Part shown: in pieces, positions 3,189-55,424 of the stretch | Numbering within the stretch: position 1 is the first letter of the stretch | How the letters are laid out: every line of letters starts with the position of its first letter | Assembly (NCBI RefSeq): GCF_016903815.1 | Contig: NZ_CP069973.1 | Source: Escherichia coli | GTDB taxonomy: Bacteria; Pseudomonadota; Gammaproteobacteria; Enterobacterales; Enterobacteriaceae | Direction: 5' to 3' (one strand) | DNA: 64,000 bases | The notes under the pieces: generated by a model | What the model was told of the DNA's origin: nothing | The model's input: the letters and a program-made list of their open reading frames with translations, nothing else | Databases searched by the model: none | Position numbers and translations under genes: made by a program

Positions 3189-3235
3189 AAAAAAAAAGAA
3201 AGGTAACTTCCCCCGCGAGAGGGAAGTTACCTTTC
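3189..3235 (-). terminator. Strong hairpin plus U9 tract on the minus strand, in the 5' leader of ygcW
   Basis: Perfect 15-bp stem gaaaggtaacttccc / gggaagttacctttc (3198-3212 / 3221-3235), 8-nt loop, nine A at 3189-3197 on plus (U-run on minus). Confidence 0.55.
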
Positions 3236-3288
3236 TCATTATCTCTGGTAACTGGAGATAATTTTTATCATAAGGGCATAATCGCTAA

Positions 3289-23575: not shown

Positions 23576-24928
23576 TTATTGCCCCGCGACAGGTTTCAGC
23601 TCGATACGCTTGATATCGCCCACCAGCACCAGGTAGCTCAGCACCGCGATTAAGGCATGAACACCAACATAAATCAGCGCCCCATTAAACGAGCCAGTCG
23701 TGCCAACGATATAACCAATTGCGATTGGCGTGACGATGCCAGAAATGTTACCGAACATGTTGAACAGGCCACCGGAAAGACCGCTGATCTCTTTTGGCGC
23801 GGTATCTGCCATTACTGCCCAACCCAGCGCCCCGATGCCCTTACCGAAGAAGGCCAGCGCCATAAAACCGATGATCATCCACTCAACGTTGACGTAGTTG
23901 CAGAACACCATCACCATCGACAGCAACATGCCCATTACGATCGGTGTTTTACGCGCAATGTTCAGCGATCCCGTGCGGCGCATCAGCCAGTCGGAAATAA
24001 TCCCACCCAGCACACCGCCGATAAAACCGCAAACCGCCGGAACGGAAGCCACAAAGCCCGCTTTCAGAATCGACATCCCACGCGCCTGCACCAGATAAAC
24101 CGGAAACCAGGTAATGAAAAAGTAAGTCAGGGCGTTGATACAGTACTGACCGATATAAACGCCGATCATCATCCGTGACCCGAGCAGCTGTTTGATCTGC
24201 CCCCACTTCACGCTGAACGGCACTTTAACTTTGGTATTTTGCTGATCCATATTGATCAGCGCGCCACCCGCGGCGATGTACTCCAGCTCTTTCTGATTTA
24301 CACCCGGATGTTGATTTGGCTCGTGGATGACTTTCAACCAGATAAAGCTGATGACAATGCCCAGACCGCCCATAAAGAAGAAGACGTGTGACCAGCCCAC
24401 TTCATGCGTCAGCCAGCCCATAATCGGCGCGAAGATCACCGTTGCGAAGTATTGAGCGGAGTTAAAAATCGACACCGCCGTTCCCCTTTCCTGCGCCGGA
24501 AACCAGGCCGCAACAATGCGACTGTTGCCGGGGAAAGATGGCGCTTCAGCAAGCCCGACCAGGAAGCGCAGCGTAAACAGGGCAACGATAATGCCGAATC
24601 CACTAAAAATATCGACGAAGCCTTGCAGCAAGGTAAACATCGACCAGATAAAGATCGACCAGAAGTAGACGCGTTTTGAACCAAAACGATCCAGCAACCA
24701 ACCACCAGGGATCTGTCCGATAACATAAGCCCATGAGAAAGCAGAGAACACATAGCCCATTCCCACGGGATCAAGGCCGATATCTTTGGCCATTTCCGAA
24801 CCGGCAATAGAAAGCGTAGCGCGGTCGCCGTAGTTGAAGGATGTGACGATAAACAACATCACCACTATCCAGTAACGAGCATTTGTGCGTTTTTCCACAC
24901 TGCTCGCAGCCTGACTTAAAGAACTCAT
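23576..24928 (-). CDS. gudP: glucarate/galactarate MFS transporter
   Basis: 450-aa hydrophobic ORF; synteny. Confidence 0.9.
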
Positions 24929-25362
24929 TGTTGCACTCCTGAAAATTCGCGTTAGCCACGCTCACTCTGGACTGCGACATCGCCAGGAAATCAGAGGTGA
25001 CGTAGGGTGTTTTTTGCCGTTTTTATAGGTCGTTCGCCGAATACGGCGCGTGTTTATATCTGGCAATAGCAGTATAAAAAGCGCGCCATAGCGGCTCACC
25101 GTGCAACAACACAACATTAATGCGTTCAATGAGGCCCGATTTTGGCATTAGCCCTGGACGGTGGAATCCACTTCACGGAAATGAAAACAAGAACAAGAAA
25201 GGAAGGGTTAAAACGAAGAAATAAAGAAGAGTATGAAATGGATCGCTTGACTCCAGGCAAACGCCAGTAAAAATCCGCGCTATGAAGCAGTTTTTACTGG
25301 CATTTGCCTGAAAAGATTCGATTCAGCACCGCTAAAACGGCATTTACCGCTCGCTGAACGTA

Positions 25363-25812
25363 TCAGGACAACAGCGTGCCCCAATGTTCGACCCACGGAT
25401 TTGATTCCGTTTCCGGTTCCGGGTTCTCACTGGCGTCAATCAACAGCATTTCGCCAACCCGCTGAGCGCTCTGTTCCTGCAACAAGGCATCGAACTGTTT
25501 GCCGCCATTGCAGAAATTCACATAACTACTGTCGCCGAGCGCAATCACGCCATAACGCAGATTCGGCTGGAAGCCCAGACTATCTTTGATTCCCTGAAAG
25601 AGCGGCACAATGCTATCAGGAAGGTCGCCCTGCCCGGTCGTGGACGTAACCACCAGAACATACTTATCCTGATAGGGCAGCCAGTCGCTTAATTCAGGAT
25701 CTTCAAATACCGTTGCTTTGTGGCCCTGCGCGGTCAGAATTGCTTCCGCTTCTTCCGCCACTAACAGCGAATTTCCGTACATAGTGCCGACAAAAATACC
25801 AATTTCCGCCAT
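25363..25812 (-). CDS. yqcA: flavodoxin-like protein
   Basis: 149-aa [26 protein letters not shown]... Confidence 0.85.
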
Positions 25813-26941: not shown

Positions 26942-26984
26942 AAAGCAACCTCAATAAGAAAAACTGCCGCGAAGGATAGCAGGA

Positions 26985-27352
26985 ATAAAAAAAGGGAGCA
27001 CTGTATTCACAGTGCTCCCGGTTCGTTTCGCAGCATTCCAGCTACTTTTGTTGCTCCCTGCTCATCCTTGACAACTTTTCCTCTGGCCTTGCGGCCAATC
27101 GTTCATCCTGAACTATTGCTTCCTGCTCACACCACCCCGATGTGATACTTCATCCTGAAGTGTCCCTGGCCTTCCTGACCCACCGAATCATCCTGACCGG
27201 TTCTCATTCTCCATCCTGGAGGTGTCCTTTAACGCGTCCTGCGTCATCCTCTTCGCTTCATCCAGAAGCCTTTCCCTGAAACACCATCCTGGTGTGTCCT
27301 TCAGAAGTGTCATCATCCTGATGTTCACTTCGTTGTCTGACTCCCTGTCGAC
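26985..27352 (-). ncRNA. csrB: CsrB sRNA (CsrA-sequestering, many GGA motifs)
   Basis: Minus strand starts GTCGACAGGGAGTCAGACAACGAAG (RC of 27328-27352), carries about 18 CAGGA(U)G-type repeats (seen as catcctg on plus) and ends in hairpin GGGAGCACTGTGAATACAGTGCTCCC plus U-run near 26985. Confidence 0.93.
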
Positions 27353-50436: not shown

Positions 50437-50642
50437 ACTTCCTGAGCCGGAACGAAAAGTTTTATCGGAATGCGTGTTCTGGTGAACTTTTGGCTTACGG
50501 TTGTGATGTTGTGTTGTTGTGTTTGCAATTGGTCTGCGATTCAGACCATGGTAGCAAAGCTACCTTTTTTCACTTCCTGTACATTTACCCTGTCTGTCCA
50601 TAGTGATTAATGTAGCACCGCCTAATTGCGGTGCTTTTTTTT
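50437..50642 (+). ncRNA. gcvB: GcvB sRNA
   Basis: Starts ACTTCCTGAGCCGGAACGAAAAG, contains the G/U-rich region GTTGTGATGTTGTGTTGTTGTGTTTG and ends in hairpin GCACCGCCTAATTGCGGTGC plus U-run; divergent from gcvA. Confidence 0.9.
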
Positions 50643-53635: not shown

Positions 53636-53735
53636 TGCCTGATGCGCTACGCTTATCAGGCCTACATAACTCCTGCAATATTTTGGATTTGCATGATTTG
53701 TAGGCCGGATAAGGCGTTCACGCCGCATCCGGCAT
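53636..53735. repeat. BIME: two REP units in opposite orientation
   Basis: gcctgatgcgctacgcttatcaggcctac and aggccggataaggcgttcacgccgcatccggcatg; flanked by near-identical direct repeats gaggttatccctcaccct / gaggttacccctcaccct. Confidence 0.75.
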
Positions 53736-55127: not shown

Positions 55128-55204
<77 letters not shown>

Positions 55205-55237
55205 ATTAAAATTTGATGAAGTAAAGCAGTACGGTGA

Positions 55238-55314
<77 letters not shown>

Positions 55315-55347
55315 ATCAAATTTGATGAAGTAAAAGCAGTACGGTGA

Positions 55348-55424
<77 letters not shown>

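Follow-up and report, generated by a model that had tools for sequence, protein, structure and literature searches.

A single-copy inverted repeat between yqcA and gudP of Escherichia coli as a probable 3'-end hairpin of the yqcC-truC-yqcA transcript

On the chromosome of Escherichia coli, the genes gudX, gudP, yqcA, truC, and yqcC all lie on the minus strand, and the spacer between yqcA and gudP carries a long, near-perfect inverted repeat. The question raised by this locus is what such a repeat does between two co-directional transcription units, and whether it acts as DNA, as a binding site in the control region of gudPXD, or as RNA, in the transcript of the genes that precede it. The present analysis covers a window of 64,000 nucleotides of E. 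coli DNA, whose positions are used throughout; the genes that frame the repeat, and the nearest RNA gene, are as follows.

23576-24928, minus strand: gudP, with its start at 24928.
25363-25812, minus strand: yqcA, with its stop codon at 25363-25365.
26984-27343, beyond yqcC: CsrB, from an Rfam search of the window.

The spacer is 437 bp long and is the same as that of strain MG1655 apart from positions 25340 and 25360. The repeat corresponds to NC_000913.3 2922427-2922481 and is identical there letter for letter, and no annotated feature exists at these K-12 coordinates. It lies 54 nt from the stop codon of yqcA and 327 nt from the gudP start, which bears out the placement of 55-110 bp past yqcA and about 330 bp before gudP given by an earlier, sequence-only reading.

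Direct sequence comparison confirmed the dimensions given by the same reading, namely a 19-bp stem with one mismatch and a 17-nt loop. The arms, aggcaaacgccagtaaaaa (25255-25273) and tttttactggcatttgcct (25291-25309), are separated by a 17-nt spacer and contain a single C/A mismatch (25262/25302); an extra pair, 25254/25310, extends them to 20 bp with the same one mismatch (25254-25273 / 25291-25310), and weaker pairing widens the repeat further. With loops of 3-40 nt and at most one mismatch allowed, it is the longest inverted repeat of the 64-kb window, while the longest in each of 30 dinucleotide-preserving shuffles measured 12-15 bp. The repeat was found in 5425 of 5426 complete E. coli genomes, in 4313 of them with at least 99% identity across the surrounding 95 nt. 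Five variant alleles of E. coli showed three SNPs: G25315T, outside the arms; G25279A, in the loop; and G25300A, in an arm, where a C-G pair of the sense strand becomes U·G. The repeat is a genuine, non-random, and conserved feature.

An intergenic palindrome, into the base of which an IS66-family element has inserted in one strain, might be regarded as the remnant of a repeat family or mobile element (REP/BIME, ERIC, or MITE), or as a chance palindrome. REP/BIME elements are likewise intergenic hairpins that follow genes and could stabilise the upstream mRNA, but the present repeat is single-copy and A/T-rich in its middle, and it has no visible resemblance to the REP consensus. Megablast and sensitive blastn searches place it at a median of one position per genome in the 5425 genomes, no second copy of the arm sequence was found in the window with up to three mismatches allowed, and the yqcA-gudP context is constant in the 25 loci of various genera that carry the element (described below). 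Since the repeat is also far beyond chance, an origin of either kind is hardly credible. REP-like elements do sit at the equivalent region in Enterobacter and in the Citrobacter freundii group.

The C/A mismatch of the plus strand becomes a G·U pair on the minus strand, which is the sense strand for both yqcA and gudP, and the minus-strand RNA can form a hairpin of 27 pairs (23 + 4) with one bulged A. Its parts can be listed as follows.

25246-25308, minus strand: the 27-bp RNA hairpin proper.
25239-25325, minus strand: extended imperfect palindrome around it, with 35-nt arms that are 77% complementary.
25291-25310, minus strand: 5' arm of the sense RNA hairpin (right arm on the plus strand), CAGGCAAAUGCCAGU, then A5 at 25295-25291; it contains the palindrome GGCAAATGCC.
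25274-25290, minus strand: hairpin apex, a 4-bp stem CUGC (25290-25287)/GCGG (25278-25275) with an 8-nt loop and the bulged A at 25274.
25254-25273, minus strand: 3' arm of the sense RNA hairpin (left arm on the plus strand), U5 at 25273-25269, then ACUGGCGUUUGCCUG; it pairs with 25291-25310.
25326-25362, minus strand: a weaker upstream hairpin, UUCAGCGAGCGG...GCGGUGCUGAA, right after the yqcA stop, in place of the CCCTCCC...GGGAGGG hairpin of other genera.

Written out on the sense strand, the stem reads GGCAAAUGCCAGU-AAAAA-CUGC-(8-nt loop)-GCGG-A-UUUUU-ACUGGCGUUUGCC. The 63-nt core of the hairpin folds at -40.1 kcal/mol (z = -9.2), and in a 181-nt context the minimum free energy has z = -6.1 on the minus strand, against -3.0 on the plus strand, where the hairpin is 8 kcal/mol weaker. 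In all six Escherichia sequences, which are close relatives, the sense-strand fold is favoured over the antisense one by 4-12 kcal/mol, because the positions that depart from Watson-Crick pairing are G·U on the sense strand; in one Escherichia lineage (L004), the sense strand carries C·A and A·C mismatches. The hairpin is also the sole strong structure before gudP in Escherichia, since the G+C-rich hairpin that other genera carry straight after the yqcA stop is missing from this genus. A third terminator-like hairpin, seen in some genera just before the conserved Block D (see below), is likewise missing. An Rfam 15 search of the whole window at gathering scores assigned no family to the repeat (CsrB, GcvB, tRNAs, and ES036 were found elsewhere), and a permissive search of 24800-25500 returned only chance-level miRNA and snoRNA matches with E values of at least 0.3.

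The internal order of the hairpin is informative. Within the stem, A5, the short inner hairpin, and U5 follow one another and are wrapped in 13 or more further pairs, and A5 and T5 flanking one hairpin is the layout of a bidirectional-type intrinsic terminator. The sequence-only reading had noted no flanking U-run on either strand; this is correct for the sequence outside the 19-bp stem, but the A5 and U5 tracts inside the stem had been overlooked. Like terminators of this type, the E. coli element shows the A5/hairpin/U5 order past the last gene of an operon and on the sense strand; unlike them, it has before the U-tract a stem of only 4 bp, with -2.8 kcal/mol. It differs from intrinsic terminators also in that its pairing runs 13-18 bp past the U-tract, which is thereby buried in the 27-bp stem, and in that nothing U-rich follows the full stem: the sequence after it is GGAGUCAAG, and the next 8 nt, GAGUCAAG, include one U. 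A scan of the minus strand from 24850 to 25450 for canonical terminators, defined by a G+C-rich stem of at least 5 bp with a U-rich tail beginning 0-2 nt after it, called none. The earlier judgement that the repeat is not a canonical terminator is therefore true of the E. coli sequence, but it does not extend to the orthologous hairpins of other genera, which are terminator-like.

These hairpins were located by a YqcA scan of species-representative genomes, which gave 80 loci, with gudP next after yqcA in most of them. A recognisable module is present in 25 sequences, from Escherichia, several Citrobacter, Salmonella, Silvania, Kosakonia, Phytobacter, Superficieibacter, and others, and in every one of these 25 loci it lies in the yqcA-gudP spacer. 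It consists of Block A (ACTGAATCGwGTTAGC), Block B (GGGCAAATGCCnGTAAAA), a variable middle of constant length, Block C1 (GGCATTTTCA), and Block U2 (GTCAAGCGACCTGTTTCACACTC), and is followed by about 40 unalignable nucleotides and then by Blocks D and E beside a promoter-like GTGAGn-17-TATACT. In the E. coli window, these blocks take the following positions.

25312-25327, minus strand: Block A, GCTGAATCGAATCTTT, a quasi-palindrome centred on CG in the form found in other genera.
Within the right arm 25291-25310, minus strand: Block B, the palindrome GGCAAATGCC, conserved in 25 of 25 module-bearing sequences.
25229-25251, minus strand: Block U2, GTCAAGCGATCCATTTCATACTC, also kept in species without the hairpin.
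25140-25186, minus strand: Block D, TTTTCATTTCCGTGAAGTGGATTCCACC...GGGCTAATGCCAAAA, the invariant core of the gudP upstream region, including the palindrome D2.
25071-25118, minus strand: Block E, AATGTTGTGTTGTTGCACGGTGAG (25118-25095), then the gudP promoter-like pair, with -35 GTGAGC (25099-25094), a 17-nt spacer, and -10 TATACT (25076-25071).

An equivalent pair, GTGAGA-17-TATACT, was called promoter-like in two Citrobacter loci, and, judged by the E. coli pair, the predicted gudP start lies about 215 bp downstream of the hairpin. The repeat thus lies where a terminator of the upstream operon would be expected, downstream of yqcA on the sense strand and about 215 nt before the predicted gudP promoter. 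The whole module is missing from more than 40 species that retain gudP along with the conserved core promoter blocks D and E; Enterobacter, the Citrobacter freundii group, Buttiauxella, and Trabulsiella are among them.

Where the module is present, its middle commonly forms a terminator-like hairpin. Orthologous hairpins in Citrobacter, Salmonella, and Superficieibacter are terminator-like and carry a T-run. In Citrobacter sp. MGH106 (L009), the middle reads CCTTTC-ATTT-GAAAGG followed by GTTTTTAC, and this orthologous inner hairpin was called terminator-like on both strands; a separate scan found a hairpin with a T-run at the orthologous site in four more genera (L023, L065, L067, and L073). 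Among the 25 module sequences, 17 have an A-run of four or more and 18 a T-run of four or more. Folding of segments of 61-63 nt (53 nt in Salmonella), scored as z against shuffles, gave values from -1.5 to -6.4 for the 11 bearers of the T-run outside Escherichia, 9 of which are at or below -2.5, and values of +0.4, -0.3, -0.6, -0.6, and -2.2 (the last in L051) for five sequences that lack it. Across genera, a stable hairpin and a sense-strand T-run are mostly present together or both absent.

The inner stems themselves differ between Escherichia lineages and between genera (CUGC/GCGG, CCUUUC/GAAAGG, CCGC/GCGG, CCCUU/AAGGG, CCGCU/AGUGG), while the potential to form a hairpin is retained in the clade with the T-run. 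The stem beside the A and U tracts covaries, from CCAG/CUGG to CCUG/CAGG to CCCG/CGGG, and at the pair 43:75, 7 sequences have A-U, 7 have C-G, and 3 have U-A. Of all cells, 70% are paired; sliding the partner columns leaves no more than 48%, and the observed covariation score was reached by one of 500 shuffles. This is the pattern expected of a structure under selection as a terminator on the sense strand, in many cases of the bidirectional kind, which has decayed in one clade and gone with the whole module in others.

In Escherichia, two substitutions on the 3' side (TTTTCAT to TTTGCCT) have made the outer arms complementary and produced the long stem. The inner stem has an energy of -2.8 kcal/mol in the window sequence, 0 in two Escherichia lineages, and -4.8 in one, compared with -5 to -9 kcal/mol elsewhere. 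With these observations, the reading that we consider probable is that the repeat forms the 3' end of the yqcC-truC-yqcA transcript, as a sense-strand hairpin that descends from an intrinsic terminator; the suggestion of an RNA processing or stability element in the sequence-only reading came close to this. The minus-strand RNA hairpin would separate the yqcC-truC-yqcA operon from the co-directional, inducible gudPXD. The ancestral element would have been an intrinsic terminator made of A-tract, hairpin, and U-tract, bidirectional in many genera and apparently still in place in Citrobacter, Salmonella, Superficieibacter, and their relatives. In the line to Escherichia, the inner stem before U5 would then have weakened, while the outer stem gained about 6-10 pairs to give the 27-bp hairpin.

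The sequence directly 3' of the hairpin offers a candidate for the remaining step of 3'-end formation.

25176-25255, minus strand: a pyrimidine-rich, G-poor, rut-like tract, directly 3' of the hairpin on the sense strand.

Over 78 nt from the base of the stem, the C/G ratio of this tract is 2.1-2.9, where the 99th percentile of the window is 2.0, as a test of composition only; at the equivalent tract of most genera the ratio is 2 or higher, though the sequence there is unalignable. Dar and Sorek (2018; PMC6061677) report that the ends of Rho-dependent transcripts lie at stable stem-loops that no U-run follows, and that rut sites come directly after them. The E. coli element resembles these protective stem-loops in being very stable, in having no U-rich sequence after it, and in being followed directly by a tract in which C exceeds G. 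It differs from the Rho-dependent ends described there in that the locus has no entry in the published Rho-region tables that were searched. In the Term-seq and Rho-region tables of Adams et al. (2021), yqcA, gudP, and coordinates of the form 29224xx are absent, and the TERMITe and SMRT-Cappable-seq tables have no entry for the yqcA-gudP locus; such missing 3'-end entries may reflect low expression. A literature search for yqcA and gudP together returned nothing useful.

By analogy with such ends, the hairpin is possibly now the protective hairpin of a Rho-dependent end, a specific variant that is less certain than the general claim of a 3'-end hairpin. Some transcripts may end at the internal U5, aided by A/U pairing, and the weakness of the inner stem in Escherichia makes termination there probably inefficient. 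Transcripts that pass U5 would form the full 27-bp hairpin and might then be released by Rho on the C-rich, G-poor tract, after which the released RNA would be trimmed back to the hairpin, which would block 3'-5' exonucleases. The structure, its conservation, the joint occurrence of hairpin and T-run across genera, and the downstream base composition are direct observations; from them we infer that a transcript ends here, that intrinsic and Rho-dependent release may share in forming its end, and that gudP is thereby insulated.

An RNA hairpin of this size admits other roles. By its predicted fold, with 27 pairs and one bulged A, it would be long enough for RNase III, for which about 20 bp of nearly continuous double-stranded RNA is the criterion, and the duplex exceeds two helical turns; cleavage could uncouple yqcA from the downstream RNA. 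Equally, Blocks A and B together with the hairpin could constitute a small RNA derived from the 3'UTR, such as a ProQ ligand, being A-rich on its 5' side and ending in a U-tail, given that both blocks would fall in the yqcA 3'UTR just before the terminator hairpin and are conserved across genera. Both proposals appear improbable: no Rfam family matches at any threshold, in the tables derived from RIL-seq, yqcA figures only through its coding sequence, as a minor node, with neither a 3'UTR nor an intergenic RNA listed, the Hfq CLASH tables contain nothing for the locus, no conserved promoter came to light, and Blocks A and B persist in the clade without the terminator.

A role on the opposite strand was also considered, either as the terminator of an unannotated transcript or small ORF diverging from the gudP promoter region or as a promoter directed antisense into yqcA. 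The bidirectional layout supplies a T-run on the plus strand as well, and four genera keep that one only; a promoter-like match, TTGACT-16-AAAAAT, exists on the plus strand at 25247-25274; and one RefSeq genome (PGAP) has, as a hypothetical gene, a 42-aa ORF (25142-25270) whose end falls in the left arm. From the shared ATG, however, the ORF ranges from 3 to 29 aa across the genomes compared, its sequences are unrelated, and one Escherichia lineage has a premature stop, so that the small protein (42 aa, or 29 aa from the ATG), conserved in neither length nor sequence, looks like a spurious annotation and was set aside. The promoter was rejected as well: its -10 match is the A-tract itself, and by eye no -10-like hexamer occurs at that position in the genera without the T-run or in the species that keep U2 only. 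The antisense fold is, moreover, the weaker one in Escherichia, and a plus-strand function is accordingly very unlikely.

The 3'-end hairpin leaves one set of observations less well accounted for, namely the conservation of the flanking blocks. The outer parts of the arms (GGCAAATGCC, which is Block B, and GGCATTTTCA, which is Block C1) are conserved even in genera without the hairpin, where they are unable to pair, which means that something beyond RNA pairing constrains them. Block D is kept whether or not a species has the hairpin module. Blocks A and U2 stand 75-77 nt apart in 18 species (67 nt in Salmonella), and U2 and D 70-71 nt apart in 26 species (60 nt in two others); block spacing is thus fixed to within 1 nt, with few exceptions that are off by about 10 nt, while the sequence between the blocks is unalignable and saturated with substitutions. 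As judged from the alignment, this looks like the DNA helical phasing of protein sites. The right arm also resembles the D2 palindrome (TTGGGCTTATGCCCCAAA type) of the core gudP region. A position weight matrix derived from the D2 of orthologues in other species ranks the E. coli D2 first and the right arm 10th-14th among about 128,000 positions of the window, and the motif GGC-N4-GCC occurs three times in the 437-nt intergenic region.

From these features it can be proposed that the repeat is a protein-binding site at the level of DNA, in which the arms are two inverted copies of a palindrome of the GGCAwwwGCC type, also found in D2, and form with Blocks A and U2 a phased array of putative gudPXD regulator sites. 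The repeat shares with palindromic operators a nearly perfect palindromic DNA sequence and a place ahead of a regulated operon, and it has one D2-like arm and neighbours at fixed spacing; unlike such operators, it has far larger arms (20 bp) and a far larger spacer (17 bp), an arrangement atypical of a transcription-factor operator. The compensatory changes in the stem keep pairing rather than sequence; they and the joint occurrence of hairpin and T-run indicate that selection acts on pairing. More than 40 species with gudP and Blocks D and E dispense with the element, and its distance of about 215 bp from the predicted promoter is large. The matrix match is only suggestive, with about 0.1 expected per intergenic region and the left arm at rank 60. 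A DNA-level role for the flanks, and possibly for the arms, is on this balance unlikely as the main explanation, and is nonetheless best treated as a serious rival or as a second layer.

The particular regulator that the sequence-only reading had named as an example, CdaR, did not gain from the comparison. The proposal, by which CdaR binds the repeat to control gudPXD, has in its favour the position of the repeat upstream of a CdaR-activated operon and an 8-mer of the right arm, GCAwwwGC, that is also found upstream of garP-garD and of cdaR; its presence in all three regions was matched in 0 of 5000 shuffles, but the motif was defined post hoc and is not relied on here. The arm motifs, at their best, match the gar and cdaR promoters no more closely than they match shuffles, and a matrix built from the gar and cdaR sites gives the arm a score of 6.0, which is to be expected 0.64 times in 437 nt. 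Those sites have a different half-site, TGTGCA...TGCACA, and the sequence GCATTTGCACAATG, identical in the gar and cdaR regions and absent from the arms, appears from this comparison to be a better candidate for the CdaR box. The absence of the module from many gudP-bearing species that keep Blocks D and E, together with its distance from the promoter, also counts against CdaR, and a search of the literature found no published CdaR site or footprint. The repeat is therefore most unlikely to be a CdaR operator.

Individual blocks suggest other regulators. Block A of other genera resembles LacI-family or Cra operators, and U2 contains a CRP-like half-site, TGTGA-N6-TCGCT (plus strand), that is degenerate in E. 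coli. Neither candidate was retained for E. coli: the E. coli copy of Block A is one position off the strict consensus for a Cra box and more than three mismatches from the ideal palindrome, and no link between Cra and gudP was found in the literature; for U2, besides its degeneracy, a CRP genomic-SELEX paper lists garP<>garD and neither gudP nor yqcA. A likeness between the module and the gudP ribosome-binding site (CGAATcTTTTCAGG and CGAATTTTCAGG) is confined to Escherichia and was judged to be due to chance. A broader proposal, which we regard as doubtful, would make the repeat the centre of a cross-genus array of about 250 bp with fixed spacing, comprising A (LacI/Cra-like), B, C1, U2 (CRP-like), and D, on which a putative nucleoprotein complex would assemble in the gudPXD control region; in Escherichia, two of its sites would have been made into a palindrome, so that the DNA could double as a protein site and as the 3'-end hairpin of yqcA, or as an insulator cleaved by RNase III.

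The 3'-end hairpin of the yqcA operon, although unannotated, is an ordinary kind of element. If the reading is correct, it would explain why a constitutive operon for tRNA modification and a flavodoxin does not leak into the neighbouring glucarate operon, which is tightly induced, and it would add a 3'-end element at NC_000913.3 2922427-2922481 to the map of E. coli K-12. It would also provide a small example of terminator evolution, in which the inner stem of a bidirectional-type terminator is lost while a long outer one arises, a change that possibly represents a shift from intrinsic to Rho-dependent 3'-end formation. The blocks at fixed spacing suggest, in addition, undescribed upstream control elements of gudPXD beyond CdaR. 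None of these implications would surprise a specialist, and the fixed-spacing blocks are the more intriguing loose end.

The spacer between yqcA and gudP, both on the minus strand, contains an array of conserved segments, designated Blocks A, B, C1, U2, D and E in order from yqcA towards gudP, alongside the following elements:

25095-25327, minus strand: Blocks A to E, conserved across genera (loci L004-L083).
25312-25327, minus strand: Block A, GCTGAATCGAATCTTT, a CG-centred quasi-palindrome.
25071-25099, minus strand: gudP promoter-like pair GTGAGC-17-TATACT, directly 3' of conserved Block E.
25142-25270, plus strand: 42-aa TTG-start ORF with its stop codon inside the left arm of the hairpin (25254-25273).

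Among loci L004-L083, the distances between the blocks are constant to +/-1 nt while the intervening sequence is unalignable, and the rare departures from this spacing are shifts of about 10 nt, a pattern suggestive of protein sites set in helical phase upstream of gudPXD. Block A, whose counterpart in genera other than Escherichia reads ACTGAATCGwGTTAGC, forms a quasi-palindrome similar to operators of the LacI family and Cra; the E. coli version lies one position off the strict Cra consensus.

An identical 14-mer, GCATTTGCACAATG, is common to the MG1655 garP-garD spacer (L086) and the region upstream of cdaR (L087), both controlled by CdaR, the activator of gudPXD. Together with a third site of similar sequence, GAGCATATGCACA, these suggest a palindromic box, TGTGCAwwTGCACA, which is regarded as a candidate CdaR operator and for which no earlier description was found in the literature. 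Block E of gudP, TGTGTTGTTGCACG, adjoins the -35 element and matches this box at 10 of 14 positions. A plus-strand TATAAA (25073-25078) overlaps the -10 element of the promoter-like pair, an arrangement that could permit divergent transcription.

Counted from the ATG at 25182, the plus-strand ORF encodes 29 aa, and it is annotated in NZ_AP045179.1 as a hypothetical protein (WP_001296328.1). As a gene it is probably a spurious call, since it is not conserved between genera and one Escherichia lineage carries a truncated version.

The hairpin of E. coli 2014C-4135 (L002, NZ_CP027310.1) is itself intact, with ISEc23, an element of the IS66 family, inserted at its base. The two matches on either side of the insertion overlap by 8 bp, CTTGACTC (25246-25253), consistent with a target-site duplication.

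Elsewhere in the window, the following features were recorded, the RNAs comprising CsrB, GcvB, ES036 (CssrF) and three tRNA genes:

3197-3236: inverted repeat, second in length in the whole window, AGAAAGGTAACTTCCCCC / GAGGGAAGTTACCTTTCT (arms of 18 bp, loop of 4 nt).
26984-27343 (minus), 50437-50642 (plus), 53658-53700 (minus), 55128-55421 (plus): known RNAs at Rfam gathering scores.

The region downstream of yqcA varies among genomes. Several genera (L025, L026, L048, L049, L051, L067, L074) carry a third terminator-like hairpin ending in TTTTCATTT of Block D, giving up to three tandem hairpins between yqcA and the gudP promoter, against the single one in E. coli. In loci L012, L015-L018, L021, L054, L057, L070 and L075, which come from Escherichia albertii, from several Citrobacter and from a few further genera, the fetched flank has no gudP after yqcA; in L017 it is present about 2 kb further from yqcA. 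Judged by this absence across several genera, the junction 3' of yqcA is a site of gene-content change.
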